A stretch of 54,562 nt of DNA, counting the filler, from Jimgerdemannia flammicorona (Eukaryota): NCBI GenBank assembly GCA_003990765.1. It is 2 parts of 2 records of this genome, joined end to end, with 100 filler letters (N's around TTAATTAATTAA, not from the genome) between each part and the next. Parts side by side here need not be neighbours in the genome. Positions count along the whole stretch, not along the records: positions 27,333 to 54,562 come from RBNJ01000651.1; 1 more part is not named here. One strand, written 5' to 3'. Under the pieces are notes generated by a model that searched no databases, was not told the DNA's origin, and saw only the letters and a list, made by a program, of their open reading frames with translations. Below are positions 3,856 through 41,717 of the stretch, piece by piece. Within the stretch, counting starts at the first letter, position 1, and each line of letters opens with the position of its first letter. A program made the translations under genes and the position numbers.

Positions 3856-3859
3856 GTCA

Positions 3860-7745: not shown

Positions 7746-7749
7746 TGGT

Positions 7750-9700: not shown

Positions 9701-9746
9701 GTTTGTAGCAGGGTGAGGAAGCGTCTTGAAGTAGAATTGGATTGTA

Positions 9747-9760: not shown

Positions 9761-9763
9761 AGT

Positions 9764-14104: not shown

Positions 14105-16596
14105 GTGAAGCCTTCCACCAACATTGGAGAAAAATTGACACCTCAACAACAGCAACAACTAGTAGAACTTCTCAACAAATATCAAGATATCTTCACCACC
14201 GACTATGGCAACCTGCCATACAACCCATTATATCACCATAGCATAAATATAGGAAATGCAACACCCATTCGGCAGAAACCCTATAGAATACCCCATCATC
14301 TAAAAACATTCGAAAAAGAGCACATCCAAGAACTCTTAGACAATGGAGTCATCCGACCCTCTACCAGCCCCTGGGCTAGCCCTATACTTATTGTACCAAA
14401 GAAAGGAGGATGGAGACTCTGCATGGATTACAGGAAACTCAATTTAGTCACTGAAAAGGATGCCTATCCTCTGCCTAGAATCAATGACCTTTTGGATCAG
14501 TTACAAGATGCCAGATACTTCAGCAGCATGGACCTCTTTGCAGGATTCCATGAGATCTCCATGGACCCTAAGGACATTTAAAAAACAGCCTTCCTTGCTT
14601 TAAGAAAACTGTTTGAATACCTCTGAATACCCTTTGGACTTTGCAATGCACCCCTGACCTTCCAGAGGATGATGAATTCAGTCTATACCCCCTTGATCCA
14701 CTACTGCCTGATTGTATACATAGATGATTCCAACATCTATTCAGCAAATTTCGAAGAACACCTGCACCACCTAGAGGAATTCTTCAAGCTCACCCATAAG
14801 AACCACTTGAGATTGAATGCAAAGAAATATTACTTTGGAAAACAGAAACTCAAATTCCTTGGATTTATAGTTTCAAAAGAAGGAACTCATGCAGACCCAA
14901 AGAAAACTGAGAAGATCAACAATTGGCCAGTACTTAAGACTCCAAAAGAAACACTATCATTTCTGATGCTAGTATCCTACTACAGAAGGTTTATCAAGGA
15001 CTTTGCTCAAATCACTGCCCCAATCCAGATCCTTCTCAAGAAAGGAGTACCATTCAAATGGACAGAAACACAAGAAAAAGCCTTCAGAGAACTCAAGAAC
15101 CACATGACTATAGTACCAATCCTTGTGCGCCCCAATCTACAGAAGTCATTCATTTTATATACAGATGCTTCTAAAGATGGCCTCAGGGCAGTTCTGGCCC
15201 AAGAAGGACCCAATCAACAGTACCATATGATAGCCTATGCAAGCAGAGCTACCAATCAGCAGCAGATGAACTATGGTAGCACTAAACTGGAATGTCTTGC
15301 AGTCATATGAGTGGTCACCCTGTTCAAGTATTACCTCATCAGAAAAAGGTTCATCCTGATTATAGACCATGCAGCCCTCAAATGGTTATTCAACCACAAG
15401 GAACCCACTGGAATCCTAGCCCGCTGGATTCTTATCCTTCAGGATTACAAAATCACCATCATCCACAAAGCAGGGAAAGCCTACAACAATGTTGATGTAC
15501 TTTCCCACCAGCTCCAATGAACCAGAAGAAGGGTGTCCCAAGGAACTACACCCTAAAGGAAGCTCCTCAGACCATCGAGGCACAAGAAGATCTCATCCAT
15601 AAAGAACATCAGAAAGCCCATCAAGGACAGACAAGTACAGAAGACAAGATTCAAAAACAATACCAACATTGGCCCCACCTTAGAACACAAGTCTGAAACA
15701 TCATTCAGAAATGTGACATCTACCAGAAGTACCAAGGAAAGAAGAACTATCAAGCCCCTCTGCAACCGATTCCCCCACCCACTCATATCTTTCAAAGATG
15801 GAGAGTAGACATAATTGAACCCCTACCAGTTACACTAAGAAGAAACAAATACATCCTTATGTTTGTGGAACATCTGACCAAGTGGCCCAAGACTTTTCCA
15901 ATAGAAATCGCAGATGCCTTAATCATTGTAGGCCTTCTCCATGGACTCACACTCAGATATGGACCCCCAGAAGAACTCATCTCTGACCGAGGCATGGAAT
16001 TCATCAATAACATAATCACAAGTTATGCCCGAATTCACAAGATCCACCTCAAATGGACCACATCATACTACCCTCAGACCAATGGCATGATAGAGAGAAT
16101 GAACCAGACCATCAAGAAAGGACTTGCCCAAGTCAATTCTACCAATTGGGACCTCTGCTTACCTGAAATCCTATGGGAAATCTGGAACACCCCTGCTGCA
16201 TCAACCAAACAAAAGCCCTTCGAAATGATGTTTGCCAAGAAAACCAGAACTGCTGACCATGAGAATGTCGGAAAGCTTCTTGAAAAAGGAGATTAGCTGC
16301 AAAATGAAGCCTGAATTCAGATTATTAAAGCCCAAGAAAGACAAAAGAAGTACTATAACCAAAAACAGAAAGATCAGGAGATCAAGATTGGAGATCAAGT
16401 ACTAGTTTGGAGGAGCATGATTGAAACAAATTTTGCCACCAAATTGGAGCCCAAATAGGAAGGACCTTATCTTGTACACAATATCAGAGGAATTAGCATC
16501 TATTTAAGAAACATGAATGGATGAATCCTCAGAACACCAGTATACATCAATCGCCTCAAGATATACCTTTCCCCACATCATGAATCAGAGAGTTGA
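14105..16596 (+). pseudogene. RT-RNase H-integrase of element B (stops and frameshifts)
   Basis: ORFs 14105-14581, 14669-15310, 15311-15520 and 15859-16296 carry canonical Ty3 motifs; GPY and RLKIY tail ending in TGA at 16594-16596. Confidence 0.92.
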
Positions 16597-17135: not shown

Positions 17136-18542
17136 TGTGACAAACCAAGATGTACCATCCAAATTATACCTTAGCTAGATAATGTGAATAATTAGCTAGA
17201 TGATGTGAACACACAGCATAGTAACCAGTAACCATTGCTGTGGAAACTGTATAAATAGCCAGACTACTAGATAGAGTACATCTGTATAGGACCTGCACAC
17301 CTGAACAGGACCTGTACACCTGTACCGGACCTGCACAACTTGCCATAAGTAGCAAATCTATAGTTAGCCATATAGCAACCAGATAGCAACCATAATGTAT
17401 AAATTACCCCAGAGACAAGAGTGAATAAACCTCAGTCCGAAAAGTTGAATACAAACCAAAGCAAAAGTCAATTGTCTGGTATACTTAGGAGAAATATCTG
17501 CCAAAAGCCACTTGATCTAGGAAGGATTGCAACACTTAGGAGATACGCCTGCCAATGAGCCACTGCCAAGAAGTTGTGAGCTTGGTCCTCTTCTCTTCCA
17601 CTCTGGTCCACTTTCCAATATAAAGAATAAGTCCATTTTTGGTTCACTTGCCAGATAAGTCTGAAGATTTGCTGCCCAAGTTCAAGGAAGAACTTTGCTG
17701 CTGTTTTCCAGTTGAAGCCAATGCAGAAGAATCCGCACTATAGTATTCTCAGTTGAAGCCACCAATTTAGAAGAATCTGTGCCATCTGAGTTATTTCCCA
17801 GAAGCCCGCCGATTCAGGAAGAATCTGCATCATCTACTGTTTTTAAGTTATCTGCCACATTCCCAGAAGAACCCTGCCGATTCAGGAAGAATCCATATCA
17901 TCTGAGTTACCTGAGTTATCTGAGTTATTGAATTATCTACCTCCTATGACATCCAAGTTATCTGAGTTATCCAAGTTATCTGAGTTATCTACCACTAAGT
18001 CATTCGTCTATTCCCAGTAAGCCTGAGAAGAATCCGCCCCAGTATAATTCCCAGTAAGCTGCCATTTCAGGGAAGCCATGCCAAATTAAGCCATCCATCA
18101 GAAATCACATACTTTTGGAAACCTGTTGTACTATACAGGGATCGTCATGCTATACAAGATTGTCACACAGAAATCGCATAAGGAGAACTACTAAATTGCC
18201 AGACCATCATGCATAAGGAGATCATTGCACTATGCAAAGAAATCACCTGCTACTCAAGAAGGAAACCACTCGTGCTACACACAAAATTCTACCAATTCCC
18301 AGTTGACCCAAGAAGGAAACTCATACACAAATTGCTGCTACACCCAGAGATCTGTTCCAATTAGGAAATTGACATACAAATCACTCGCAGATATCCAGCT
18401 TTAACTATTATACCACTAAACACCAAGGACCTCAGGAATCTTAGAACATTTTGTTGCTTTTTGACAAAGTAACTGAGAGCTCAAGCCAAACTACATCAAC
18501 TTCCAACCTTGTAATTTACCTTCATTGAGCCGGCACATTACA
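17136..18542 (+). repeat. 3' LTR of element B (about 1.4 kb)
   Basis: Begins TGTGAC directly after the PPT and ends ...CATTACA where copia sequence starts; TATAAATAG near 17250, AATAAA near 17424; internal short tandem repeats (atctgagtt, cctgtacac). Confidence 0.75.
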
Positions 18543-20641
18543 ATACTCAAAAAAAGAGAAATATTGAGATACATCTCTATAGAAATATTATAGAACTTAT
18601 CAGTATCTTTCAAGATATACTATATACTTCAGAAATTGGTAAAAATATCTTTTCAATAGAAAAAATGATATTCTGTAATAACAAAGAGATATATATTTAT
18701 GTAAAGAATATAATAGTATAATAATAAGATGATGATAGCTTGAAATATAGCAATCTTTATATGATCAATAAAATGCTGAATAGTGTAAAACTCTCTATAT
18801 ATATATATAATAACTATTTGATGTATCCAATATGTGGCATTAATACTTAGGATATATTGGCAAATTAAGCCTCAGAAGAATAATCCAAAGTAGCTCAGTA
18901 AATGGACTACTGACATATATATCTAAAGGATGATTTTTACAAGACATCCTGACAACTATTCAAAGAATAATTAAAATACACCTCAGGTTCTGGATCTCAT
19001 TCACACTAATATATATAGTCCTATATATATACCATTATACTTTGGAAAGAAGAATTTTATTATATTTATTGATAATTATATATATAAAACATATGTATAT
19101 TTTCTATCAGCAAAGAGCAAAGTCTTGGAAAAATTCAAAGAATTCAAAGCAATTACTAAGAACAAAACAAGATGTAGAGTATATACTATATAATCAGATA
19201 ACAGATAAAATATGCAATGATATATTCAGATAGTTTCTGAGAAAATATAACATATCTTATTAAATGACAGCTTTCTATATACCTCAGCAAAATGGTATAG
19301 CTAAGTGATTTAACTGTATGATTATTGAAATAGCTTGAATGATGATTAATGTAGCCAGATTATCATATTTTTATTAGGCTCAAACTATTAATATAATAGC
19401 ATATATACATAATTGATATATATCTTAACTACTAAGTAAGAGTTCTAGTAATAACAACAAGTATTCTAGAGATGATAATCTTACCCTTGAAAAATTATAG
19501 AGCAGCTCCAAATTAGATGTATCTCATCTATGAACATTCAGATGTGACATATATATTTCCAACAAAAGTAATATCAATTAACACAAATTCAAGCTAAAAG
19601 TCAACAAGCATATATATATTTCTTGGGTATTCCAGTAAGACATATAGACTCTGGAATCTACACAAGCAGCATGTAGTTATTTAAGATAATATAATTCAGA
19701 GAAAAAGGAAGTCAAGAATCCCATATAGATATACTAATCAAGATCTCTATGTTCTAGTTAGTACAAATATAGCAATTAAAGAAACTAGTATCAACCTCTC
19801 TAGCAGTTAATCAAAATTATTTTCAACTGCTATATATATCTGAACTAGAATTATCTGAGCTAAGAATAATAGAGATCAAAGATAAAGATAATGACAATAT
19901 CTCTAGTAATAAGGAATTTTTTATGAAGGGTAAATAAATATAAAAATACTCCAACATTCATCAAGAAACTTATTCTAATTTAGGAAGTTATTGAGATATA
20001 TCAGCAAGCTCTAGATAGTAATAACAGAACTATGTAAACTATGCTAAAGTATATAAATATATATATATCATAACTTCTAGTGAGCCAAATATATATAATA
20101 AATTCATGCATTTCCTGAATAGCAAAAAATAAAAATAGATAATAGATGAGGAATATGATTTACTTATTAAGAATAGCATATGTGATCTTGTACCCCTTCC
20201 ACCAAATTACCAAATAATTAAATCCAAGTGGGTCTATAGAATAAAGTGTAATATCAATGAAAGTGTAGAGTGATATAAAGCTCATTTTGTTGCTAAGAGA
20301 TACTTATAGAATTATATTATAGACTATGATAAGACATTTTTGCTAGTATTTAAACTTACTTTGCTTAGAATACTCCTTATAATTAATATGCTATATAATC
20401 TGAAATTCCATTAAATAGATATCAAAACAGCATTCCTGAATAATGATATAGATACTAAACTATATATCTACCAACCATAAGAATATAATCTCTATGATAA
20501 TGATAAGAATGAGCTCATATGTAAATTATATAAAAGATTATATTGCATTAAACAAGTAGTACAATTATAGAATAAAAGGATTGATAAATATCTCCTTAAT
20601 GATGAATTCACATATTGTAAAGTAGATAATTACATATATAT

Positions 20642-22269
20642 TATAATGGTGATCCCAGAATGATGACATCAGCACAGGAGACAGCCTTTCCTTACAAGCT
20701 ACCAGATCAGAGTACAAGAAGATTATATGGCATATGAGATGAGTGATGATGACCAACTGTAAGTCATTGTAACTACAGTTCAGATATCTTGAGGAATATA
20801 AAAGAAGGATCAAGAAACTGCAGTAGCAGCAACCAACAAGACCCACTAATCTCAAAATAGCTCAAAGACTTACTACAAATGAAATGCCTGCCACTCACCA
20901 AACCTCAAGATCAAGGAACCACTAAGGTACCTCAGTGAAGAAAGGATGTTTCAAGACATCAGAAGAGCCATGAGGACCCACTCAAGAAGGACTTCTAATG
21001 TCAACCTAAGTACTGGTGACCCTTATTACTATATCCTCGACCACTGTAAAATGGAAACAAGGATCACTATTGCTACCAAATGCCTCCAAATATGGCAGGA
21101 GTAAGAAATAGGAAACCTCCTCTACCAGGAGTTCTCACAGGCCAGCACTCAAGAGCTATAAGATGTCACTCTTATGGATATATATGAAACAAGGACAGCT
21201 GAGAAGATCTATCAGATCTTCAGACATACACCATGGTTAATCCCCAACTTAGAGTATGTTAAAGTCTCAGATTTCAGAAACCTATCAGCCTGCTGTATTG
21301 ATGCACTAGAAGTCAGAGTGGCTACAGAAGCCCAGTCCACTATTACTCTCAATAGTGATGAAGTAGAAGACTTCTGGCACCCCATCCTCTAGGACAACCC
21401 AGACCAATTCCTGCAAGGATTGATCTCAGTATTCCAAGGCCCAAGCATCCAGGTTAGACCTCTCTAAGATCTCACATTTGTTCCCTATTTTGTAGAAGAG
21501 AACCTCATAGACTAGAGAGCCCCAGACCTCCTTCCCACCACCACCGAATGTGATGACATCATTGGCAATGACATCATTCCATGTGATATATATGAGATAT
21601 ACAACATGCACAAAGTATGCAAAATACGTGACCTATGCAACAACAATGATGAGACAGATGAGACATTTGCAGACCTCATCTCCTTTGAAGACATCCTGAC
21701 CTCTGATGAGGATGAAGCCCTTATGGTCTTGAACATTCTGCTCTGAAATTCTTTAGTGACATCAAATAATGCCAGCACTGGCATTCTGATGTGATACCAA
21801 ATAATACCAGTACTGGTATTCTGAGGTAATACTGAATTATTCCAGCACCATTTTCCTGTACTACCAAAATTATACTAGTATTTTGAACCTATACAACCAT
21901 CAGTACCAATCCTGGAACTTAGCAGTTTTTCCTGTTCTGGCATTTTATTTTAGTTATTGGAATTTATATTTAGCTTTATATCTTAGCAACCATTGAATTA
22001 TATTTTATATAAATACCCCTCTTATTTCCTCTGAAATAAAGTCAGTCAAGTTTCAGTCAAGTTCACTTACACACACTTCCTTACAAGCAATCTAAGAGAT
22101 AACAAGATAGTTAAAGATAAGAAGTTTAAGGACTATAAGACCTTGGAAAGGCACTCTAATAAGAGCTTGCTTATAACAAACTTGAGTTAGTCTAAGAGAT
22201 ATACCTTGAAGAGAATCTGGCATATTTGAAGGACTCAGTGATCACTACATGACAATATCTAATATTATA
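20642..22269 (+). mobile_element. Solo-LTR-like element C (about 1.6 kb) inserted in copia RT
   Basis: Splits copia RT between D..IY and WVDD; TATAAT...ATTATA ends (decayed TGTAA...TTACA); TATAAATACCCC near 22008 followed by AATAAA near 22035, the same layout as LTR A; exact ends and TSD ambiguous. Confidence 0.65.
20946..21746 (+). pseudogene. Accessory ORF inside element C, homologous to the LTR-A ORF and to B ORF3
   Basis: One frame with C>T-type stops: MFQDIRRAM...PYYYILDH...LQIWQE*EIGNLL...DVTLMDIYETRTAEKIYQIFRHTPWLIPNL..., followed by an acidic tail; true start may lie further upstream. Confidence 0.7.
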
Positions 22270-22689
22270 ATAATAGCATAGTATTCATCAGTATTTGAGT
22301 TGATGATATAATTATTATTACTAGCAAGAATAGACTTAATAGAGTTAAAGAAGCCCTATACTAAGAATTTAAGATGATAGATATAGGTGATACATCCTTT
22401 CTTTTGGGGATATTTATTATATATGATAGAAATATACTCACTATATATCTTTTGCAAGTGACATATACTCAAACAATTCTCAAACATTTTAAAATAAATG
22501 AATGTAAGCTCATTGTTACTTCTATAAATACTTCTATGAAGTTAAGGAAGCCAGATACTACTCCTGAGAATAATAACAATATACTAGTCAAAAATAGACT
22601 CAAAGATATATATATCTTATTAATAAGTAATTAGTTCTCTTATATATCTCATGCTATAAATGATGTCTAATATATTATATATTATAAAT

Positions 22690-23942
22690 AAGATAATATA
22701 GTATTCTTTCTACTATGATAATTTATATTAGAGTATTATCAAAAGAATCATATTCCTTTCTCTACTACCTTATCAGTTACAATGGTTTGGTAGGCAATCT
22801 TTTGAGTCCACTTTCCACAATTATTATCCCCTCTACCTTGGATTGGTTTGCTGTACCTATTGTAGGGCAGTGGGAGGGAGGCAATGGTGATAAGTTGCTC
22901 TTTTATCAGTGTCCAATCAGTGTCTTCTCTACTTTTTCACAGATTCTGGTACCTTTGGCTATATCTGAAGTACATCTATTTTGGTGCAGCACCTTCTTCC
23001 TTTTATCATCACCAACAAGGTACTGTTTTGGTATATTATGAGTTATGTAGAGAGTTGGCTAACCTTAGGCATCAAGTATCTAGTATAGGTTACCTGCAGG
23101 TCCTCAGTATCTATAGTGAGGTTCTCTGGTTTTAGCGAGCTTCCTGGCAAGTGCAGTTCTAGTGTAGGTGACTGTTCTTCAGGTGTTATCAAGATGGAAG
23201 AGGAGATGGCCATCACAGATAAGAGGAAGGGTGATTACAGTAAACCAGTAGGATGCCAGGCTGGAGGCAGTTGTCAGAGCTGGGGTAAGTACTGCTTCAG
23301 TGGGGCCTTTTGATTGATGTAGAGTGATTAAGTGGTAGGTATCACTCTTGGCTTTTTTTGGCAATTCAGTGGATTGGATCCCAGTTGTTGGGGGGGATTG
23401 GAGGCCTAAGGCTACTTATTTCAGGCATCTTGGCTATACTCAACTGGAACTAGGAGCTGATATAGCAATGTGATCAAGGCCTGTAGACTTGAGTATTGGG
23501 GTATTGGAGGTCTCCTCCTATCTCACATATAAGTTCTTTACTCATCTTGACTGGGAGGACTAGGCCCTATCTACTATAATGTACTTTGATGAGAGTTTTT
23601 CTTTATCTGTTATTCTCTTTAGGGTGGCAGAGGCTGTTCTATTTAGCTTGGACATGGCCTTATATATATGATGGGGTCTTGGACATATGCTTTCAGTTAT
23701 TGGTGTATGGCTGGATTCCCCCTGATAGTAGGAAGAGTATGGTATATAGAATGAGGTACAGGCTACTATAGGTCCTGCTATACTGGGTATAGTTGAGCTG
23801 CTAGATAATAGCTAGTCTAGGTTAATGGGGGAGTAGTACTTGATGGGTGGTAGGGGAGGGTTTTGGCCTATATAGTCTAGGTTCTCTTTTAATAAAAATC
23901 CACAGGACTTTAAGTTTGTTAAAAAAAAAAAAAAAAAAAAAA
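22690..23942 (+). mobile_element. Unidentified poly(A)-tailed insertion in the copia relic (non-LTR-like 3' end)
   Basis: AATAAA near 23891 and A-run 23921-23942; last about 100 bp similar to 29660-29760; copia frame resumes right after; body not identifiable. Confidence 0.5.
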
Positions 23943-24550
23943 CTATTAAAAGAATATTCAAATATCTTAAGGGTATGGTATACTATATACTCATATTGGG
24001 TGGTAATATCAGATAAAGCAAGAGCAATAATAAGAAAAATATCATTCAGCTATTTAGTATATATGATACTGATTAAGTAAATAATCTTAACAACTACTGA
24101 TATATAACTAGATCTCTCTTCCACATTAGTGAAAGGTCATCATTTTATAGCAAATATGCAAGTAGAGTTTTATAGTAATATCTTCAATATAGATAGAGTA
24201 TTAGGTATTGTCAATGATAATAAAAGAAACTATATAGCTTTATAAACTATTAAAAAAGCTTAGCTTTACTCAAAAGAACTTTATATTGATCAAGCAAGAT
24301 AATTAATTGATAATAGTATATACTAAGAATCCAGTATATCATAGTAGAATGAAACATATTGATATATAATATTATTTTATATAGAAATATATAGAAAATA
24401 GTACTATATACTTAGAATATATATCACTTATAAAAGCTCTTCTAAGGCCAAAGTTTGAGCAATGCATTAAAGAAATAGAACTTTTTTGAATATTACAGAA
24501 TAATGTACTCTCTATACTAGTGTTTTAGCAAAGTTTAGTAGTTAATTATG

Positions 24551-24554
<4 letters not shown>

Positions 24555-24622
<68 letters not shown>

Positions 24623-25350
24623 TAGGATATATCATCTTTTTATTACCATTTAATCTATATAGATAAAATACAATATCCAACCCCTCCCACTATCCAATCT
24701 CTCTAGAGAGAACTCTACTAATCTCTACTTATTTGAATACCACTTGATCTACAATTACCTCTATCTAACTCCTACTTTGCCAGCAGACCCCTTCAATAAA
24801 CCAGTGATAGTAGCCACTCTGAGGCCCCCAGTCCACTCACCAGCCAGTCAAGAGATTCTCCATCAACCTATCTCACCTCAACAATATCTCAGCAAGACTC
24901 AACTACCACTCTTCCTCAAATACAAAGAGCCAATACCCTGCCAGCCCCACTCAAATTGCCAAGGTCTAGCTATACATAAGCCACTCATTCCCCCTATAAG
25001 CCACTCCTTCAAGTCCTCCCAATGGCCCCTCACCTCATCTCCCCTCCTCTGAACTCTCAGACACTCTTTTATAGCAATCTAGAAATTTCCAAGTACCCTG
25101 TACTCCTCCAGCCAATGTTCAGATATTTGTACAAAATTCCCTTCCTACTCTATATTAAGATAATCCTTATACTCAAACTCTCTACTCTCAATCAAATGTC
25201 CAGAGCAGAAGTTCAGTATGATATTCTTCCTTAGCATATACCACTATACCATCCAGAACTTGGGGGGAAACTACTGCTTGACCTCAGTACTCCAGAACCA
25301 AACTCCAGCCCAGTCTCACTCCTCACCTATACCTAGTGCATTGCAACCCA
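24555..25350 (-). mobile_element. 3' end of a LINE (L1/Tx1-like) with poly(A) tail
   Basis: Long T-run 24555-24619; minus strand decayed zf-RVT motif (C)KD(C)...EHWLEE(C)RVLGNF(W) at about 25080-25170. Confidence 0.65.
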
Positions 25351-25720: not shown

Positions 25721-26112
25721 GCCTTTAAGCTACAAGGTACCAAAAAAAATATATTGCACATTTAAGATATATATTTAGAATAAACAAATAGAAACACAAT
25801 TAGGAATCAGAAATCAAAATGAAATTGGAAATAAATAGGAAGTAAATTAGGAAAATAAAGAACTTATTGGTATGAATAGATCTTACTCTTCATTGCTATA
25901 AACCAACTAATCCTCCTTCTTCTCATATTCTGAACCATCTTCCTCTATATATTCTAAACTGCATCTTTCTCCGGTAATATTCAGGTTACACAAGACTCAG
26001 ACAACACTTTCTACAACGTTTTTGGTGTCCAGCGACTAACAACATGGATGGCAACGACTGATCTGGTGAGCGTACTGGCCAGGGGGGTGGTGGCGCCTTT
26101 GGCTGGCAGCAG

Positions 26113-27232
26113 GTGGGGAGGAGGGGAGATGGTTTGGGGATGCCAGGGGCCTCGATGGCTAGCCGGGGCCCCAGTAGCGGAGGAAGGGGAGGTCTGAGGC
26201 AGAGAGGAGGGGAGAGGATGACCTTTGCTGACAAGGTCAGGATGGGGGTGATGGCTTCTGGGCTGGATAGTTGGCTGGGCCTGGGGAAGGCTTCGATGGC
26301 TACTACCGGGGATCAAGGAGGTGCACCCCAGGGTGCTTCTGGTGGTAGGGAAGGGGCCGGAGTAGGGGCTGGAGATGTGACGGCTGATGGGGCTGTGACT
26401 GGGGATCTGGCAAAAAATCCAGATGTGACGGCAGTTGGCAATTTGGGACTTGGAGAGGGCATGAGGCCCGGGGACCTGGCGGATGGGGTGACGGGCATGG
26501 TGTCGGCCCCGTTACTCAAGAAGTTGAGGTCAGAATTTGCGGTCACGATGTGCTTCCGGGGCTTGGCAGTGACGGCGAGGATGATTTTGGGGCTGGTGGC
26601 GCAGGAGGCTAAGGGAGCAGCGTCGGTGAAGTTTTTGAGGGGAAAGGAAGGGGTTGAAGTGGGGTTCGAGGAGGAGGATGCCTTGTTGGCAGCCATGGAG
26701 AAGGGGGTGATGGTTGGCGGGGTGGTGGTCCCTATGGCTCGGTGTATGTGCTGGGACCCCCGGGTGGTGCAGTTGACGGTGTGGGACCTCCCTACGGTGT
26801 CGAAGGAAAGGACCAGGGAGTTGGTTGTAGAGGCAATAAAGGAGTATGGCGAAATTGTGGACGTGGGGTTCAAGGTCTGGGAGGGCACGGAGCTTAGAAC
26901 TGGAGACGTCGATGTCAGGGTGAGACTGGCTGGAAAGGAGAATACGGGGAAGTCGAGGGACTGGCCAGCAGCGCTGAGGTGGGGACAAGTGGAGTGTAAG
27001 GTCGCTAGGGTGAAGGGGACTCAGGAGGAGGAGGAGGACTTGCTGGAAGCTCTGGAGGACCTGGAAGGGGCTGTTGCAAGGAGGAGATTAGCCTGGAAGG
27101 AGTTCGAGGCCAGGACGGTGGTGGGAGAGGTGGATGGGAAGAGGGTTCGGATGGAGAAAGGGGCCTGGGAGAAGATGCAGGGGAGGAGGATTCAGAAGGA
27201 GTTGTTGGCAAAGTTGGATGGGGGTAGGGCTG
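26113..27232 (+). CDS. Probable LINE ORF1 (gag-like) of a young non-LTR element, truncated by the assembly gap
   Basis: Uninterrupted GC/CpG-rich frame; TFADKV motif and RRM-like segment IKEYGEIVDV...LRTGDVDVRVRL typical of L1/Tx1 ORF1. Confidence 0.6.
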
Positions 27233-27332
27233 NNNNNNNNNNNNNNNNNNNNNNNNNNNNNNNNNNNNNNNNNNNNTTAATTAATTAANNNNNNNNNNNN
27301 NNNNNNNNNNNNNNNNNNNNNNNNNNNNNNNN
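27233..27332. other. 100-bp scaffold gap with artificial TTAATTAATTAA linker
   Basis: N44-TTAATTAATTAA-N44; the linker has stops in all six frames. Confidence 0.97.
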
Positions 27333-29562
27333 TCCCACTTGTTGCAGGTGTGGAGGTCAAATTGTCCTTGTACGTCAGGTTCAATTCTCTCCAGATTGTC
27401 AGATGGTTCAGGATAAATTCCAGTTCAGAGGTTGGGCTTTATACCAACTTGTAGGAATTCTCAGAGGGGTTTGTAGCGGGGTGAGAAAGCGTCTTGAAGC
27501 GGAATTGGATTGTAAACCGCTGCTACCAAGTTGTAAGAGAGTTACTTTTTAGGGTGACCGTTACGTAGTTCTAGAAGGGTTTTCTGGAAGTTCTGGATAT
27601 TCTGGAAGACCGTTTTCTTATGGTCAAGATCAATTTCATATGGAGTACGTCCTCTATGCTTATTGATTTCAAGATCGGGTTGACGTCTCAACCAAAGTCC
27701 TTTTCTGGACTAGTTCTGGATGTTCAGGATTTTCTGTATTTCAGGAAGTTCAAGAAACTAAGACCAGCTTAGTTGAATTGGCATATCGCTGCAGACAATA
27801 CCCAATTAGGAAATTTTGTGACAGGGTTAGGAGTAGGACCTAACAGAGAGCGGATTTACTTAAGAGTGGTTTGTGGGTTATGGAATAGGTTTATTTGCTA
27901 TTCATGGTATTGCTATACTAGGAGTATTTGTGTGAAGGGGTATTGTGGGGAAGTATTCAGGAAAGTTCTTGTCTGTTCGAGTCTGAGATTCTGAGGTCTG
28001 GGGGAGGGGGTATTTGTACTAGTGAGGGGCTATCTGGACTATGCTAAATATGGATGTAGCACTAAGTGCCTTGCTGAGTTGGAATGCAGTCACGTAGTAC
28101 AAGTGTGATCTGACATATCAAGAGATCGTCTGACTGCTGAGTCAGTTCACAGTCACATCGTACAAGGCTAATCTATCTATACTATGACTGCTAGACTATT
28201 TATAGGTTTAGGCACTATCTGGGTAGTCTTCGATGACATCACCATCGATTGCATCATCTCTGATGAAGTAGTCGTCTAGGAATAGTGGTTCGCGGATTAC
28301 TTCTCCTTATTGGCTGAGGTAGTAATACATTGGAACTTCGTCACTATCCCACAGGATAGCATCATCTGTCTCGTATGCTGGATAAGGTATTGGTGGGCGA
28401 AGGATGGGTGTATTGTCTTCGCTTTCATCGGATTCGCTATCTGCGTACCTTCTATAGGTTACAGCACTATGAGTCGCGGGGTTGTAGTAAGCTGGCGGCT
28501 GTGATTCAAGTTGCTCGTACTCAGGTGATAGAGTGGTTGGTTCAATCTCGAGAGTTGTCTGGAGGTACAGGTTGTGTTCTCCGGTCTCTTCATTGTAGTT
28601 GAAGTAATCGGAGGTGAACGCAGGTTGGTATTCGTACCAGTGGTCATTGTCCCAATAAGTCTCGTATGTAGTTATGAACTGTTGTAAGTTCATCGGCAAG
28701 GTTGGCGGAGTGATCAGGGTTGGCAGAGATCCTTGGCTAGAGGTCATGTCGGCATCAGAGGGGTCATTGTCTTCTGCTTCGTCTTCATCGAAGTGGATTA
28801 TATCGTAGATGTCTTTCATGGCATATCCGACTTGAGACATTTGCAGGATATGGTCATCGGGGTGCGAGAAGGTTCTGTCTGTGGTTTCGACATACTCGAG
28901 GTACTTGTGGTTGATTTCTTGTATCATATCATCGATTTGGCCATAGGACAGGGTAGCAACCATTTCGCTGGTAGTGACTCGGAGGCAGGGAATAAAGGTA
29001 TTGTACTCATAGAAGAGTTCTCGATGTTTGTGGGCAATGAGCTTCTGGTGTTGAGACATCTAGGTAATGTCTGTATTATGGTGGTGTTCGACCATATCTT
29101 TCAGGAGGCGGCCAATCTGGTAGTAGCTTGAGATTTGTCCGATTCGGTGGGCCTTGTTAAGCATGTTCAGGGCATTCCATTGGGCTTCCACGAAGTAGAG
29201 GGGTGTCAGGCTATGGATATTCATAAGGGGCAGAGGGGGTGTGGCTCGGTTGACAATGGCATTCCAAATGTCAGCGCGGATGCGGTTGTAGATCTCAGTG
29301 GTCATGTTTGTATGTTTGGGAGTTGTGGTTGTTTTTTGTTTTGGTTCTCTGACTTGACACGTCTTGGTGCTCAGTATATATGCATTTGGTCCTGATTGGT
29401 AAGGTTCCGTTTGTATAGATCTTGTATTCCGTGACTTCGTATTGACTCAGCTTTGTGCACTGTGATTTCGGTTTGACTCAGCTTCGTGATCAGGCAGGTA
29501 ATTTCCAGATTTGTTCAGAGGGTGACGTGTGATTTCAGTGGCTTGGAGGTTGTGCGCTTACA
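27333..29562 (-). mobile_element. 5' LTR (27532-29562), PBS and leader of another element A copy, cut by the gap
   Basis: Similar to 9565-11885; least CpG-decayed copy. Confidence 0.93.
28208..29305 (-). pseudogene. LTR-encoded accessory ORF of family A, best preserved copy (365 codons, two C>T stops)
   Basis: ORFs 29060-29305 and 28307-29059 are in frame across a TAG (CAG in other copies); the TAA at 28307 is CAA in copies 1 and 2, extending the frame to TAA at 28208-28210. Confidence 0.85.
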
Positions 29563-29914
29563 TTTAGTCTCTATATTATTAAAATAAAAGTATACAATAC
29601 TACTCTTATATAGCTAAGACAGTGAGACTACTGATTTTCTTTATAGCCTAAGAATGATAGAGGAGTAGTACTTGAGAGAAGGATGGGGGAGAGTTTTTGC
29701 CTATATAGTCTAGGTTTTCTTCTAATAAAAATCTATAGAAACTTAATTTTATTTTAAAAAATCTGAGAGAAGAGTGATAAGCCATAAAACAATAAGCTAA
29801 AAATCAAAAAAGCTAGAGATTAGAGAGCTAAGAGTTAGTAAGCTGGGAGACAGTTTATTGGAAAGTAAGTAAGCTGGGAGGTAGCAAGCTAGGGGGTTGG
29901 TGGCTGATAAATGA

Positions 29915-29998: not shown

Positions 29999-31501
29999 AT
30001 GGTAAGGACCTTCGCACTTTCTTCGCTGACCCGCAAATACATGCCCCTGCCTCAACTCTTTCACCATGCTCCTCCTCCACAGTCAAAGAAAGGCCTGTCC
30101 ACAGCTGAGAAACGCAAACGTCTTGAAGGACTTTTCCACGAGACCGTATGTACCACGTCTTCATCGCAAACCCAGTATCTTCCAACAGTCTAACTATAGT
30201 CTACCTTCACCTTGTGGAATGTGCAGAAAGAGTTTTTCCAACTCAAGGAACTGGAGAAAATTGCGCCCAAGAAGAAAGGGATCGGTAAGTCCAACTTTTT
30301 TCGGCTCGTTTTACTCTAGCTTACCAGATGCGTGCTTCCCAAAATTGACTCCAACCCGATAGTCACACAATCTGTCAAGGAGGTCCTCCAAAGTCTTGTT
30401 GACGACAACCTTGTCACGACAGACAAGATCGGCACCTCCAACTACTTCTGGTCGTTCCCGTCCACTGCTCTGCAAACCGTGAGTATTCGGGCTTCTGATG
30501 CAGTGATCCGTTGGTCTCGGCTGTTTTCTCACTCTTTGTCTTATCTACCCGTTTCCTGTGAATTTTGACCTAAATTGCTCGCTCGAATACAATGCCATTA
30601 TTAGCGTAAATGCAAGATTGATGCCCTCACAGACGAGATCACAAAGCTCAAGTCCAGGAACGCGGAGCTAGAACAGGCGATACAGGATGCTTCTGGCGGA
30701 CGTGAAGAAACAGTATGCGTTGCCTTTATGGGTTTTTGGGACGTGAGGGAATTCCATACTGGGAAGGAGTACAGCTGTATTTAACCACGTCCCTCTTTTT
30801 CTTCATATAACTTGTCATTGATACTCGACAATTCGTAGAATGACCGCGCAGCCCTCCTCAAAGAGCTTGCAGAGGCTGAGTCGCGCAAGAAGGGGAATCT
30901 GGAAGAACTGCAGAGGTACCGTGAGTGCGATCCGACCCTGTTGGAGGCTAAAGGTATGCTATACCAATTAACTACGCCGGGCAGATGACCAATTCAACAA
31001 TAGACGGGAGCACCTAAGATCGGAGATATTGTGATGTATGAGGGCTCAAAGTGTGCGGCCGCTCTCGATTTTCTTAACGTCCCACCAGTGTGGGAGAAAG
31101 AGTGTTGAAATCAGCGTCCATGTTGCCTTCAAAAAATATCCGGTGTATTGTATGCCTTACCATGTCAGATGTATATTTGATGCATCTCTCTCTCTCTCTC
31201 TCTCTGCTTGTATTTCCCCTTGAATGGAGCAGAGAAGGCTGCTAAAGTTGCCAAGGAGGCGGCTAATCGGTGGACAGGTATGACATTCGTCTACATTCAT
31301 TTATGGTGTTATTTATGCCAATCACCGTTTTCCAACTGACGTGATGCCATGACTATTGTATCTTTTGTCTACGCTCACGATTGCTTGGAATCAGAGAACA
31401 TCTTTGTCATTCAGTCCTACTGCGTCAAAAACTTTGGCATGCAGCGCGCAGACTTCAACGAGAACTTTGCCATCCCGGATGACTTTGATACGATCCCGTG
31501 A
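29999..31501 (+). CDS. MND1: Meiotic nuclear division protein 1, 8 exons (first exon is the ATG only)
   Basis: Spliced translation MSKKGLSTAEKRKRL...FFQLKELEKIAPKKKGI...SVKEVLQSLVDDNLV..DKIGTSNYFWSFPS...ANRWTENIF; all introns GT-AG. Confidence 0.96.
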
Positions 31502-33400: not shown

Positions 33401-36400
33401 CTAAAATTCCGATTCATCGCCACCACCATACCGGTTACCACCTTTCCACTTTCCCCTCCCTCGTTCGCTCCCGCTTGGCTTCCTGCTTCCACGACTTCCT
33501 CTGCCTCGGTTTTTGCTGCTGTTGCTAGCCTGATTTGTACAGACATTAGCGTAGTGCCCTGGCTGTCTCGGTGAAACAAGGACGATCTAGAAATTAGTGG
33601 CCATGCAGAATTGTACGATGCAACAACACGCGAAGCAAAATACCGATTCAAACGTTCGAACATTGTTATTACCGACCTGGCCACATTTGTAGCATTCCCC
33701 CTTCGAACTTCCAATCCCACTTCCCCAACCACCTCCACTACCGCTCCTACTTCCACCAGCAGCGCCACTACCACCAACTGCAACCGCTTCGTCCCCATCC
33801 ACCAATTGAAAGAATTTACATCTCGATATTTGCGACTCCTTCGGACAGCAGTAAAACTGCATGCCACGGTTTGGACTATCTGCCTTTGAAATCGTTCGGA
33901 CAGCGCAATTGAGACCACATTGGCATTTAACTTTGGCGCCGGCGTTTTGGTTGGTTGCTGGTTTCATGTGATTAAGGTACGGGGCCATAGAGACCTTATG
34001 TACGAATAGAAGGTGGTGTCAAAGGAGCCAAAAAAAAAAACAGTGATCACAAAGTAATTGTTGTCAGTAACAAGGCAACTTGCCGTGGCGAAGAGTATCT
34101 TTGATACTATAGAATGTAAAACGAAAAAAAAAAACGATAAAATCCGTCAGGTCACTTACGGCATCAACTCTCGCCAGCTCGTCGCCGTCATCGCCTGCAT
34201 TGCCACCAAATTGATTAATCCCGAGCCTTCCTGTACCCCTGAAATTCCCACCTCCAAATCCGCCGGTGCCGCTGCCACCGGCGTCGCCGCTCCTACCCCA
34301 GCCCAAACTTCCTCCACCGCTTCCGCTACTTCCATTCTCATCATCCCACTGTAAAAAATCGCAACCGCCATCTTTATACTCCGCACACCCGTAGAACTTT
34401 CGTCCTTTGTTCTGACTCTCTTTTGCAACTGTCCGCTGTACCGACGGGCGACCACAGTAGCACATAGGCCAATCCGCACTACCCCCGAATGATCCCCCTC
34501 CTCCTCTTCCTCCTCCTTCTCTTCCTCCTGCTCCTCCGCCCGCCTGATCCGACCATGCAAAGAAGTCACATCTTGAATTGTCAGTCTGAAGCTTCGCGCA
34601 TGCGAAAAACTGCCTGCCTTGATTGGCACCTTCCTTTTTGACGGTTCGCTGCATTGCGGGCACACCACAGTTACAAGCAGGAGCTTCATCGCCTCCGCTG
34701 CCACCGCGGATGTCATTTTGGAACGACGAGGAACCTCTGCACACTGATGCGGGCAACGGTGAAGGATGGGTTTGATGACTGTTGTTGACGGTGAGGACGC
34801 GACCTGCATTGCTAGTATTTCGTTGGGATGTTGCCGAGAATGCTCGAGCTATTGCCGATGTTGGCGGTCCTCTCTAAAATATAATGTGCATACCGCAGGG
34901 GCAAAAACAAAGGAAATGTTTTCAGCAAGAGTGCGGCAATAACCGTCATGTCGCTTGAAGCGATCCACTTACATGTTGAGTAGCCTCATGACCTCCGGCA
35001 TCTTTCCTGACAACCGTGAAAAATTCGTTCATTGTTTCATCGCACCCGCCAACACAGCCATCATACTGGAGTGGCACGCTGGGGGGTACCTTGCCGGGCA
35101 CAAACCGCACATCCAGCCTGCGGACGGGATCGCTTCCGGGAGGCGTGCATCTTGTGCAAGTACGCTCCGAGACTACAACGTCTGCAACCACGCCGTCAGG
35201 TACGCGAATGGCCTCTTTGCAATCGGGATAATTTTGGCAACCTACGTAGGAGAGAAAGCGAAAGCAACCATGAGAATAGCAATTAAAGTGCCAGAACAGC
35301 GGAGTCGAAATGTATGAATGTAAGCATGACCATGGTTCAACGAAGTCGCTCATGAAGCCAGTAATCAAACGATTATAGAAAAAAGATCTGCTAGGAAACT
35401 CTGATAGGAATAAACGATACATAATTGAAATATATTCGATCCTTACAAATCCTCCATCCACCATTCGTTTTTGGCTTGAGTATTAACTGATGAGATTCGC
35501 ATTTGCACTTCTTGATAATTTTCCACTCGGCCGGATCGCCCTTGAAGGGACAAATAAATGAAAATGAAAAAAAAAATCTATCAATTCCCCCAAACATATT
35601 GCTTACCTCAGCCAACGATATCCATACGAACCCCTATGGAGCCGAAACCCAGAATAACCTACTCCGCCCAATCTTTCAAAATCAATTTCGTTTTCTGCCT
35701 CCGCTGGGTGATCAAAATACTTCTCCAACGACCGTTGCAATGTGGCGACCTCCTGTGTAGCTCGAACATAAACTTGCCGGTACATTTCAACGCTTTCACG
35801 GACTACGTCTTCTTTGGTGAGTGTTCCGTCGCAAATTTGTCTCATGTTGGCCTCCATCTGACGATTAGTGAAGAGGAAAAACCTTGTATTGAAAAAAGGA
35901 AGTCGGTTGCCAGAAAGACTCAAAGTAGCCGGTCATTCATTTTATTTCGGTTCTATGACATACCTCTCTTCGTAGAAATGGCTTGCTCAAAGATTTCTCG
36001 AAGCCAATCTCATCATAACCGAGAACCAGAGCAATGCCCAAGGTGGAGGGATGGAAATAGTTTCCTTGCTTGAAAACGTACTCGCGTTCTTGTATCTTCT
36101 TGATGTGGTCGGCAATCGTTGCATCCGTGCCTGCAACGTAGAGGGTAAGAGAAGAGTATCGTGGTAAGAGAGATAATGTCAGGTAAACGTTAAATTGCAT
36201 TACATGAACTCCATCAACCATGAAATTTGCGAGACAATGGCATCGACCACATCAAACATTTTCCGCCCAGTTTTCCGCTTTTACCACTCACCAATCTCAT
36301 TCTTCTCCATCATACTAATCAGATCTGACTCTGTCAGTAGATTTGGTGGTTCAGTGTGACCATCGTTCATCTCCAGCGTTGTGGGCATAAATTGTTGTCC

Positions 36401-38912: not shown

Positions 38913-39769
38913 ATGGCCAAATCCAAGTACGAATACGTCAAGCAATTCGAGCTCGACGACTCTCTTCTCCCAAACACCTGGCTCGTCGTCCGCATTGACG
39001 GCCGCGGCTTCCACAAGTAGCCATCTTCTTAAGCCCTCTCCTCACCCCTTCTCTACGCCTGCTTCACCCTTTAACCTTCGTCTCCCCCCAAACCAGGTTC
39101 GCCACCGCCCACGGCTTCACAAAGCCCAACGATCGCCCCGGGCTAGACCTCATGAACGCCTGTGCCGTTGCCGTGATGAAGGACATTCAGGACGTGGTCC
39201 TCGCCTACGGCGAAAGCGACGAGTACAGCTTCGTCCTCCATCGCTCCTCCAATCTCTACACGCGTCGCGCCTCCAAGATCGCCTCCACCGTCGTCAGCCT
39301 CTTCGCCGCCAGCTACGTCTTCCTCTGGTCGCGCCACTTCCCCGAAAAAACGCTCCAATACCCGCCATGCTTCGACGCTCGAGTTGTATGTTACCCCTCT
39401 GACAGCAACTTGCGCGATTACCTCTGCTGGCGCCAGGCAGACTGTCATATCAATAATTTATACAACACGTGCTTCTGGGAGATTGTGCATTCCGGGAGGT
39501 CGGAGAAAGAGGCGGAGGATGAGCTGAGAGGGACGGTGGCGTCGGAGAAGAACGAGATGCTTTTTTCAAGATTCGGAATTAATTATAACGCGGTGCCTGA
39601 AATGTTTAGAAAGGGGTCAGTGGTCGTAAGGGAGGAGGCTGAGGTGACGTCTTTATCGGCCAAGACTGGGCTGGAGGTTGTGAGGAGGAAAAGGATACCA
39701 ACTGTTTTACATGTGGATATTATTGGAGAGGAGTTTTGGAAAAGTAGACCCGAGTTGTTGGGTTCGTGA
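38913..39769 (+). CDS. THG1: tRNA(His) guanylyltransferase, 2 exons (intron 39017-39096)
   Basis: [13 protein letters not shown]...[12 protein letters not shown]...KPND...YGESDEYSF...FDAR...[14 protein letters not shown]. Confidence 0.97.
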
Positions 39770-40562
39770 CAAATAAAGGAAAGGAAGGGTTTGCTATAAT
39801 CTTATACTGAAATTTTATACAACTAACAAATAAGCTCTTTAGACCCTAGTGGCATGCAGTTGTACGATTTCATGTATTTTTGGAAGAGGTGGTTATTATG
39901 GTAAATTAAACTGATTTAATTTTAATTAGAGAAACACTGATCATATTATTAATTTAATTCTAGTAAATTAAGAGATTTCTACATATTTTATCATCAATCT
40001 CAATATTATGCTAATGTCAAGCATATATATATAATCTAATTACATCCAATTTTTCGTCTTCCACGATGTAATCGATGAGAATTCCGTATAGAATAGAGAT
40101 ATTGGATCCTTCAAGATAATTGAGGTTTTGATTGATATTTTCGTGAAGTTGTGGGATCCCTATTCCAAAAGTTGCAGGTTGTCAATTTTGCGGTATATAA
40201 TTATATATTTCTGTTTGAAGAATGGCCAAAGTTTGGTATTTCTATTTCTATGTCTCCGAAATAACGCTTCAGGCTGTCGAAGAGAACATCTGCGTATATT
40301 TTTTTTTAATAATTAATAATATCAAACTTAAAAGTATCCACTTTCGGTTTAAACTACCTACCATGAACATTCACTCCATTCATTTACAGCCGTAGCAGTT
40401 AGAATGAGGATGACAATCAGAATGCAGCGGACTTTGATGTTCATGATGATAAGGGATAAAGAACCCAATTATGTCTGGCCCTCTCATAAAGGGCGGTGAA
40501 ATATATATAATATAATATACACATAAAAAAAAAAAATCAAAAAAAAAAAAAAAATAAAAAAA

Positions 40563-40597
<35 letters not shown>

Positions 40598-40645
40598 ACT
40601 AAAGTTTTTATAACTAGCTAAAGTAAGATACTTAATACTAAGTAA

Positions 40646-41717
40646 TAGTGCTTTAAATGAGTCAATTTGAATCAAATCTGGATTCAATTTATTATATAAT
40701 GGTTTGATCTGAATCTCAAATCTAAAGCAATCTGAATCAACTTGGATTAATCTGAATTATTTCATCTGAATTACCTCATCCAAATCACCCATCCAAATCA
40801 CTCTATCTGAATTACCTCATCTGAATCACTCAATCCAAACTACTCAATCTGAATTACTCAATCTAAATCACTTAATCTGAATTATTCAATCTGAATCACT
40901 CAATCTGAATCATCTAATTTGAATCCTCTAATTTGAATTCTTCAATCCAAATCCTCATCTGAATTCTTCAACTGAATCCTCCAATCCAAATTCTCCAATC
41001 GAAATCCTCTAATCTAAATTCTCTATATAACTCATATATCAGATATATCTATATATATAATATATATATATGCAAATATATATATATATAAAACACATAT
41101 ATAAATATATAAATACATATGTTGACAGATCAGTCTTCAATAGTTTACAGTATCAATAATACTTCAAGTCAAATATCTCTGATAGTTCCACACCTTCTAT
41201 GCAATTCTTACCTAAAATCTAGTAATATTATACTAAAATGGGAGATGATATTATTTGTAACTATTGTAAATAAAAAATTAAAAAAAATATATATATATAT
41301 CTATGATATGACTAATACTTTGTTTGACATATACATGATACCCTGCATAAACTGTACAGCCAGAAGTTCAAAATGCTTGATAGTTTAACTTCAACTATAT
41401 ATATATATTAATATATAAAAGATAAGTACTCTGACAAAATCAAAAAGAATATAAAGACAAATAAAATTGATATCTAAGCTATAGTGGATACATTTATCTG
41501 ATTGTCTGATCATTTCTATATCAATAATCCTATTTAATCAAAAATATTTAGCCATACTCTTTGACAGAATTTCGAAATTGACTCATTTACTTAATTATAT
41601 ATACAGACTAGCTATTCACAACTATCAAGAGTGATCAATTGCATAGTATCTTTGGCCTCCTTAAGTATGATTTATATTTGTCAAGTACCAACACTATTCA
41701 TAAAGATATCTTAGAGA
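40646..41717 (+). mobile_element. Decayed hAT-like DNA transposon 5' part (terminus, subterminal repeats, BED finger, transposase N-terminus), interrupted by element A
   Basis: Starts TAGTGCT like the terminus at 54304; atc(t/c)gaatcact tandem array 40670-41030; I(W)(Q)YYTK...CNYCK near 41220; D(Q)(P)FTTI...L(P)S.NTI..DI near 41600-41715. Confidence 0.65.

Follow-up and report, generated by a model that had tools for sequence, protein, structure and literature searches.

A 365-codon open reading frame placed wholly within the long terminal repeat of a fungal Ty3/gypsy chromovirus is probably an accessory gene

In mouse mammary tumour virus (MMTV), sag is a sense open reading frame (ORF) of several hundred codons that lies in the long terminal repeat (LTR), upstream of the LTR promoter, and is present twice in each provirus; its product, Sag, is a membrane glycoprotein of a vertebrate virus. 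The tas/bel1 gene of foamy viruses and the nef gene of lentiviruses are 3' accessory genes that overlap U3, though only partly, and Tas is a transactivator with an acidic activation domain and an internal promoter. Among retrotransposons, the additional ORFs (aORFs) of plant elements (PMC7264820), CERV of Cer1 (PMC10309623), ORF3 of bdelloid elements (PMC5408684) and ORF0 of Retrosat2 (PMC3485330) are described, in the available parts of these papers, as lineage-restricted and mostly orphan ORFs under constraint, sited between the LTRs. The ORF reported here is similar to them in kind, but it lies inside the LTR. It stands in a window (the whole stretch of DNA that was analysed, 54,562 nt long, made of two parts joined by 100 filler letters) from Jimgerdemannia flammicorona, GenBank assembly GCA_003990765.1, of which positions 27,333 to 54,562 come from record RBNJ01000651.1. 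As argued below, this frame of 365 codons probably is, or was in active ancestors, a genuine coding accessory gene of a dUTPase-bearing Ty3/gypsy chromovirus, contained entirely within the LTR.

Four long repeat copies of about 2.1 kb in the window are true LTRs of 2.03-2.12 kb, whose bounds were set by their TG..CA ends, by adjacency to a primer-binding site (PBS) or a polypurine tract (PPT), and by target-site duplication. Copy C can be aligned end to end with copies A, B and D, and the internal part behind it is interrupted by the N run at 27332. The LTRs and the ORF in each of them are as follows.

3253 to 1156, minus strand: LTR copy A, 2098 nt, the 3' LTR of element 1
2964 to 1868, minus strand: ORF of copy A, with 2 stops and a 1-nt deletion
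11885 to 9764, minus strand: LTR copy B, 2122 nt, the 5' LTR of element 1, with a PBS after it
11595 to 10494, minus strand: ORF of copy B, with 4 stops and a 4-nt insertion
29562 to 27532, minus strand: LTR copy C, 2031 nt, a 5' LTR with TG..CA ends and a PBS next to it
29305 to 28208, minus strand: ORF of copy C, 365 codons plus stop, with 2 internal stops and no frameshift
41718 to 43764, plus strand: LTR copy D, 2047 nt, the 5' LTR of element 3, heavily mutated
41985 to 43079, plus strand: ORF of copy D, with 16 stops and a 3-nt deletion

The ORF always runs in the gag-pol sense, which is the minus strand in copies A, B and C and the plus strand in copy D. Its ATG, the first in-frame ATG following an upstream stop, stands at LTR position 258-291 in the four copies, that is, 257-290 nt from the LTR 5' end, and its stop codon falls at least 676 nt short of the LTR 3' end in all of them; as the PPT, at 3255-3267, precedes the ORF, the frame is inside the LTR. 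An earlier note on this DNA had described the frame as lying wholly within the LTR and filling about half of it, and both points are borne out: the coordinates it gave for ATG and stop are exact in four of four copies, start and stop fall within the LTR bounds in each, and in LTR C the ORF takes up 1098 of 2031 nt (54%), at LTR positions 258-1355. It had also held that copy C has no frameshift and just two internal stops, which are sense codons in the other copies. Translation agrees with the first statement, the stops being a TAG at codon 82 (29060-29062) and a TAA at codon 333 (28307-28309), while the second needs a correction: the other three copies all read CAG at codon 82, whereas at codon 333 A and B have CAA and D, like C, has TAA.

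The 24 stops found over the four copies fall on 20 codon positions, and at every one of these a sense codon is kept in at least two of the four copies; codons 20, 265, 319 and 333 carry stops in two copies, with D always among them. No stop is fixed among the four copies and no frameshift is common to copies, two of the points on which the earlier note had made its claim depend. Among the post-insertion changes in the LTRs of element 1, 51 of the 94 C>T changes are at CpA (CpA>TpA) and 41 of the 68 G>A changes at TpG (TpG>TpA), with the highest per-site rate at CpG. C>T and G>A mutation like that of repeat-induced point mutation (RIP) inactivated all four copies of the window once they had inserted. 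This CpA/CpG transition spectrum supports a fungal host, and the dUTPase chromoviruses of fungi, so far as the available text on them goes, do likewise (PMC2864245).

The sense frame of copy C holds three stops including the terminal one, compared with 7-27 in the five other frames of the same 1098 nt. Without any gene, such a long frame might be a by-product of a sense strand that is rich in A and C and poor in T and G (A 346, C 326, T 232, G 194), or of some non-coding function of U3, and a strand skew of this kind does lower the frequency of stops. However, in dinucleotide-preserving shuffles of copy C, which keep the skew, the best of the six frames came down to three stops or fewer in 0 of 2000 (minimum 4, mean 13.3).

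The substitutions themselves tell more about the frame when they are separated by age. We took the sites where LTRs A and B of element 1 differ as a post-insertion class, and the sites where A and B agree yet differ from copy C as a lineage class, codons gapped in any copy being left out of the counts. Differences of the lineage class arose at least in part while the elements were active, whereas those between A and B arose after insertion, and therefore no selection for the element acts on the latter. The post-insertion class contains 34 synonymous against 72 non-synonymous changes, spread over the codon positions as 44/23/39, and 91 of the 106 are C>T or G>A; the lineage class contains 47 synonymous against 31 non-synonymous changes, with codon positions 20/11/47. 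The two classes differ both in kind (Fisher p=1.7e-4) and in codon position (chi-square p=0.007). Moreover, the changes that, judged by copy D, are derived in the line of element 1 are 20 synonymous versus 7 non-synonymous, a count in which parallel RIP hits at hot sites may mis-polarise some changes. As a control, four of the five other frames give 11-16 synonymous versus 61-66 non-synonymous changes in the lineage class; an antisense frame with shared wobble positions mimics the signal (43 versus 35) but holds more than 20 stops. The earlier note had proposed a test of codon position, and the excess of third-position and synonymous changes among the lineage differences is what it predicted. 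This pattern indicates that the LTR frame was kept by purifying selection during the divergence of the element lineages, in a test that is built on four copies and whose lineage class takes in the decay of copy C itself.

The protein of the window (P0001) has few relatives elsewhere. An exhaustive HMMER search over 1.84 billion representatives returned only two real ones, P0002 and P0003. The first, a protein of 247 aa from a 998-nt contig in ENA, shares 65% identity and 82% similarity with residues 115-365 and is the sole near-length match among 5.8 billion proteins; it is open throughout, has two in-frame gaps of 2 residues relative to the window protein, and has its C-terminus at the same point. 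The second, a 'hypothetical protein' of 128 aa from JGI, is 91% identical to residues 1-128, begins at the same Met and has a Gln at copy C's TAG, and most of its 12 differences are the expected outcome of C>T or G>A in copy C. To see what neutral drift would do over the distance to P0002, codons 115-365 of copy C were taken to 65% identity in 1000 simulated runs at each of two transition biases. Such drift produced a mean of 3.9-4.6 new stops, and the probability of no stop was 0.009-0.015, an argument that is biased in favour of a gene since gene callers report open frames only. The argument from replacements is free of that bias, as is the synonymous excess: 42 of 83 replacements in the P0002 pair are conservative (BLOSUM-positive), or 0.51, versus 0.30 +/- 0.05 in the simulation (maximum 0.47). 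Longer relatives were absent among 1015 candidates, and scans of metagenome contigs and viral contigs found no locus that encodes a relative. Two further candidates, P0004 (436 aa) and P0005 (2078 aa, with plectin repeats), were rejected as repeat-protein artefacts in which about 35 residues are matched many times.

A Pfam search with the ORF product gave no family, its single row being a sub-threshold RAMP (E=0.14) in a scan to E up to 10, and a profile search of PDB gave nothing below E=0.15. The predicted product is an orphan protein, with no recognised family or fold. That no family or fold is matched would suit an explanation without a gene; however, codon periodicity of the lineage substitutions, conservative replacements and in-frame indels are all unexpected in non-coding DNA, and beside the shuffles they make a mere by-product of strand skew or of U3 function very improbable.

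Another explanation grants that the frame was coding but takes it for a passenger, that is, a host gene or a fragment of one captured into the LTR, with no function for the element. Capture of foreign ORFs by retroelements is known from the bdelloid ORF3s, in the available text of PMC5408684, and the ORF together with its upstream region does act as a replaceable module, as shown by the variant LTRs described below. But the excess of synonymous and third-position changes built up as the element lineages diverged, when the ORF was already in the LTR; the frame is kept in a relative at 65% identity; and no host-gene homologue appeared in any of the searches of protein families, sequences or structure profiles. 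We regard a passenger as highly unlikely, in the sense that absence of function is disfavoured, while capture as the origin of the gene is compatible with all of this.

Several points weigh against a genuine gene, besides the limits given above for the selection test, the polarised changes and the simulated stops. No intact copy of the ORF is present in the window, every copy being broken. Both relatives are partial, and they are known as proteins without DNA or genomic context. AlphaFold2 on a 3-row alignment gave a predicted local distance difference test (pLDDT) of 31.7 and no confident fold, and the ESM Atlas model of P0002 (pLDDT 0.39) has no feature match, a template modelling (TM) score of at most 0.30 and no cluster of look-alikes. 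Still, a sense ORF besides gag-pol is conserved in the family, and we consider a coding accessory gene, active at least in ancestors of the present copies, to be the likely explanation of the frame.

The host element of this probable gene is best seen in element 1, which was searched with Pfam. The features on which its classification is based are listed here, along with the PBS next to LTR C.

3254-9763, minus strand: internal region of element 1, 6.5 kb between LTRs A and B
7477-7806, minus strand: dUTPase of element 1 (1e-21), preceding the protease
6826-7212, minus strand: aspartic protease of element 1
5929-6192, minus strand: reverse transcriptase (RT) of element 1
4992-5633, minus strand: RNase H of element 1
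4729-4988, minus strand: integrase (INT) zinc finger of element 1
3931-4083, minus strand: SH3_Tf2-1 of element 1 (8.9e-14)
3754-3927, minus strand: chromodomain of element 1 (9.7e-8)
3255-3267, minus strand: PPT AAAAAGGAGAGAG, just upstream of LTR copy A
27517-27528, minus strand: PBS TGGTAGCAGCGG, 3 nt past the end of LTR C

The domain order is thus dUTPase, protease (PR), RT, RNase H, INT zinc finger, SH3_Tf2-1 and a C-terminal chromodomain, on the same strand as the LTR ORF. Together with direct repeats, TG..CA ends, a PBS (that after LTR copy B begins TGGTAGCAGC), a PPT and a 5-bp target duplication (CAGAG/TAGAG) at the flanks of element 1, the series PR-RT-RNase H-INT with a chromodomain makes it a Ty3/gypsy chromovirus, and the ordered Pfam domains bear out the earlier note, which had called it so. 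All internal frames of element 1 are broken, and the strand asymmetry is equal across the LTR and the internal region. Two smaller differences among the LTR copies were seen as well: an 18-nt tandem unit, CTTCCAGAATATCCAGAA, near LTR position 1955 (e.g. 27591-27608) occurs once in C and D and more often in A and B, up to about five times, and a 31-nt duplication near the LTR 5' end is found only in copies A and B.

Among fungal elements, the PosPlaTy3 families, the Phanerochaete elements and Tmt1 have the same Ty3/gypsy backbone with a chromodomain and a dUTPase, and in PosPlaTy3-3 the dUTPase is on the N-terminal side of Pol, as in element 1 (PMC2864245). They differ in that the available text of this paper puts no ORF in the LTR; the legend of its Figure 3 names an 'add. 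ORF', for which the element and position are outside the part available. The crapaud element of Podospora is likewise a RIP-affected fungal chromodomain element, and its LTR subfamilies differ in the 5' half, as do the ORF-bearing and ORF-less LTRs of our window; by contrast, gag and pol ORFs are mentioned for it and none in the LTR, in the available text of PMC10787394.

The ORF-less LTRs belong to a second, shorter element of the window.

46074-47563, minus strand: variant LTR V1, 1490 nt, the 3' LTR of element 2
50957-52443, minus strand: variant LTR V2, 1487 nt, the 5' LTR of element 2

Element 2 (52443 to 46074, minus strand) has a perfect 5-bp target duplication (CTGAT/CTGAT) and is nested in element 3, which runs from 41718 to the window end; its internal part is just 3.4 kb and comprises gag, dUTPase and part of the protease. 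The first 45 nt or so of the variant LTRs are shared with the ORF-bearing LTR, as is the whole remainder that begins 57 nt ahead of the ORF stop; they thus retain the final 19 codons with the stop codon, the two TATA boxes, the TGACTCA sites and R/U5. Their middle part of about 700 nt is unrelated, and it has no long ORF, being closed in all frames. A different ORF fused to the shared tail of 19 codons was considered as well and ruled out, as there are stops in all three frames. Because the tail of the ORF is retained, the variant LTR descends from the ORF-bearing LTR, and the ORF with its upstream 210 nt is a module that is not needed for LTR function in cis. The ORF-less element 2 still transposed, perhaps with proteins supplied in trans.

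The position of the ORF relative to the putative transcription signals of the LTR bears on whether it lies in U3. These signals, with their coordinates in LTR C, are as follows.

29306-29562, minus strand: LTR C upstream of the ATG, 257 nt, putative own promoter of the ORF
29474-29480 and 29443-29449 (LTR positions 83 and 114), minus strand: two TGAGTCA motifs, in a direct repeat of about 31 nt
29395-29399 (LTR position 164), minus strand: CCAAT motif, TCAAT in copy D
29375-29382 (LTR positions 181-188), minus strand: CATATATA, 70 nt ahead of the ATG
to LTR position 257, minus strand: A/C-rich leader, with the ATG at 258 and an A at -3
LTR positions 1353-1355, minus strand: ORF stop codon of copy C, from translation
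28197-28204 (LTR positions 1359-1366), minus strand: TATAAATA box, beginning 4 nt past the ORF stop and kept in all copies and the variant LTRs
28138-28144 (LTR position 1419), minus strand: TGACTCA, between the ORF and the main TATA box, with a second site retained in A, B and V1
28010-28019 (LTR positions 1544-1553), minus strand: second TATA-like box, candidate for the main LTR promoter, reading GTACAAATAC in C and TATAAATAC in the other three copies and both variant LTRs
27890-27895 (LTR position 1668), minus strand: AATAAA, putative poly(A) signal of the LTR

The motifs upstream of the ATG are kept in four of four copies, the CCAAT of copy D excepted, and the second TATA box stands 186 nt beyond the TATAAATA box. 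TGASTCA sites number 23 in the window versus 12 expected, 16 of the 23 being in LTR copies and thus mutually non-independent. Since the TATA boxes and the AATAAA, that is, the putative promoter and terminator signals, lie downstream of the stop, the ORF likely belongs to U3.

The CCAAT/TATATA pair and the A/C-rich leader, 70-95 nt ahead of the ATG, would also allow a different arrangement, in which the TATATA before the ATG sets the start of the transcripts and the ORF is part of R, as the first cistron of the genomic RNA (an 'ORF0' before gag) that is repeated at its 3' end. Plant elements do have ORFs ahead of gag, for instance ORF0 of Retrosat2 in the available text of PMC3485330. But two strong TATAAATA boxes and the AATAAA are downstream of the ORF, in the very segment that the ORF-less variant LTR conserves; gag would require reinitiation past an ORF of 365 codons; and an R of about 1.5 kb puts the poly(A) signal of the 5' LTR far from the cap. 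In retroviruses, a poly(A) signal so placed in the 5' LTR is hard to bypass. An ORF in R is in our estimate decidedly unlikely.

An ORF in U3 would be carried by genomic RNA solely via the 3' LTR, some 0.8 kb behind pol, where ordinary scanning could not translate it, and it would therefore depend on a separate mRNA. Provided that the gene is real, we tentatively favour, with somewhat less than even confidence, that it is driven by its own promoter. This promoter would lie in the first 257 nt, with the two TGAGTCA motifs, the CCAAT, the TATATA, the A/C-rich leader and the A at -3, and would give an mRNA of about 1.5 kb ending at the LTR's own poly(A) site, so that each LTR, a solo LTR included, would be a self-contained gene. 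We prefer it because the arrangement of CCAAT, TATATA and leader is conserved, because the only introns seen here are short, and because the variant LTR lost the ORF and its upstream part together. On the other side, lineage divergence per site is highest in the 257-nt upstream part (0.090, compared with 0.071 in the ORF and 0.044 in the LTR 3' part), which does not favour a tightly constrained promoter there.

The gene could instead be expressed, like env, nef or sag, from a spliced subgenomic mRNA, in which the leader is joined to a splice acceptor that precedes the ATG within the 3' LTR. This is the usual route for 3' ORFs of LTR retroelements; CERV of Cer1 is made from a spliced mRNA (PMC10309623) and the bdelloid ORF3s are expressed from spliced messages (PMC5408684), according to the available text of both papers. 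Here, however, the intron would have to span about 7-9 kb, while the introns seen are of 78-126 nt only, and no joint across the element occurs among the contigs, whose coverage is limited to a 3.6-kb stretch. Splicing is a possible route, although a doubtful one.

The contigs in question come from two RNA-type runs (X1 and X2) and were compared over this 3.6-kb stretch. The runs do hold spliced RNA, as four GT..AG joints (78-126 nt) are found with 0 mismatches in the neighbouring host gene at 30145-30839 (plus strand), in contigs of both runs. Short contigs of 85-92% likeness cover parts of the ORF (records 3, 4, 5 and 8-11), and ORF-bearing LTR sequence of other copies occurs in these RNA-derived assemblies. 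As support for expression of the gene they count for less, given that they are short and may come from genomic RNA 3' ends, from read-through or from DNA traces of a high-copy repeat, and that contigs reveal no strand and no transcript starts or ends. The summed contig depth on 27573-27932 is 715-6661 in X1 and 163-1380 in X2, and 0-19 across most of the ORF with several ORF bins uncovered, but contig depths cannot rank the parts of a stretch and uncovered parts prove nothing, so that the depths were used neither for the U3 placement nor for an expression level. One apparent joint, 29438 to 29519 (GT..AG on the plus strand, in one X2 contig), was rejected as copy variation and not splicing, since the copies differ there by the 31-nt duplication.

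On the LTR, a DNA run from a soil metagenome yielded 3963 contigs, 476 of them at >=99% identity, 1250 at 95-99%, 1811 at 90-95% and 426 below 90%, and none on the host flank beyond 29853. From this spread it follows that the family is large and diverse where it is present. The flank at 29613-29732, outside LTR C, is itself repeated: the soil-metagenome run covers it at a depth of about 400, and the two RNA-type runs each have contigs on it. Copy C therefore adjoins or sits within another repeat.

As to what the product might do, it is predicted to be acidic and hydrophilic, with an isoelectric point (pI) of 4.29 and a grand average of hydropathy (GRAVY) of -0.64, and by low-confidence secondary-structure prediction to be helical over residues 1-141 or so and then mostly coil, so that we read the tail as disordered. 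Its C-terminal half has 45 Asp/Glu versus 5 Lys/Arg, plus 19 Tyr and 19 Pro, and 40-residue tiles of the C-terminal part have a net charge of -9 to -10 and 9-14 Trp/Phe/Tyr/Leu, in both the window protein and P0002. This make-up we take, by a rule of thumb and not by a validated predictor, to resemble that of acidic activation domains. Traits of an env-like protein did not appear, there being no Pfam match and no evident hydrophobic segment, although no dedicated transmembrane predictor was run. The idea of a PPxY late domain was dropped, because the 'PPAY' of the window copies is 'PLAY' in P0002.

By analogy with Tas, which serves as our working model, we propose with low confidence that the product is a trans-acting regulator of the family, whose most probable role would be to activate transcription from the LTR promoter; this is a guess drawn only from composition and the rule of thumb just named, and the protein may equally handle RNA or counter host defence. 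Among the described accessory proteins, CERV acts on the RNA of its own element, Cer1, in the available text of PMC10309623. If the product is an activator, non-autonomous relatives without the ORF, provided that they have retained the main promoter region, would also profit from it. Joined into one scheme, a small promoter in the first 257 nt would yield the mRNA of an acidic activator, the main LTR promoters of the family would be switched on in trans, and solo LTRs would keep supplying the protein. Taken as a whole this scheme is unlikely.

As to the origin of the arrangement, U3 is by definition the interval from the PPT to R, and an ORF therefore joins U3 when the PPT shifts upstream of it. 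By what would be the simplest route, the gene likely began as an ordinary 3' accessory ORF, which was engulfed by U3 once plus-strand priming had moved upstream of the ORF.

Other features of the window were noted in passing. A second, distinct Ty3/gypsy element is at 12054-16293 (plus strand), with dUTPase at 13060-13941, RT/RNase H at 14048-15307 and an integrase core at 15697-16293. An open frame of 390 codons at 26062-27231 (plus strand) lies in an island of 60% GC; its Gly/Arg/Ala-rich product has no Pfam match, and it ends at two runs of 44 N (27233-27276 and 27289-27332), which also cut off the internal part of the element with LTR copy C. Two host genes were recognised, one for tRNA-His guanylyltransferase at 38999-39766 on the plus strand (Thg1 and Thg1C, E about 1e-40), and one at 33590-35482 on the minus strand, whose product combines several zinc fingers of the GRF type with a zinc ribbon of the topoisomerase type. 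AT-rich blocks occupy 18000-25000 and 40000-45000, some of them with GC down to 25-30%.

Coming back to the described systems, the parallel with sag and nef that the earlier note had drawn stands by position and fails by sequence, for which the Pfam search gave no similarity. Compared with Sag, no homology was found through Pfam, PDB or a usable model, the product here is acidic and has no evident hydrophobic segment, and the element is a chromovirus without env. With Tas/Bel1 and Nef, too, the chromovirus ORF product has no homology. A phrase search of the open-access literature for an LTR that contains an ORF returned MMTV as its only case, and phrase and word searches of the same literature, which are weak evidence of absence, found no LTR retrotransposon with a complete ORF inside the LTR; in the available text of the aORF review (PMC7264820) the phrases 'in the LTR' and 'inside the LTR' are absent. 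What is new is the site of a gene that is otherwise of a familiar sort among retroelements: this probable accessory gene lies entirely within the LTR of a fungal chromovirus.

Accessory genes of LTR retrotransposons normally lie between the LTRs, and a location in the LTR alters how such a gene is inherited and lost. Reverse transcription doubles a gene in the LTR, so that each element has two copies; recombination between the LTRs spares it, so that solo LTRs retain one copy; and LTR swapping could carry it between elements. Since solo LTRs are usually annotated as non-coding, genes of this sort would be missed by standard annotation of genes and of transposable elements. The case would offer a concrete example of how U3 can engulf a 3' gene, with the ORF-less variant LTR as a natural comparison. 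If the joint scheme of promoter and activator were true, it would mean a Tas-like positive-feedback transactivator in an LTR retrotransposon, and seemingly 'dead' solo LTRs would keep the family transcriptionally alive.

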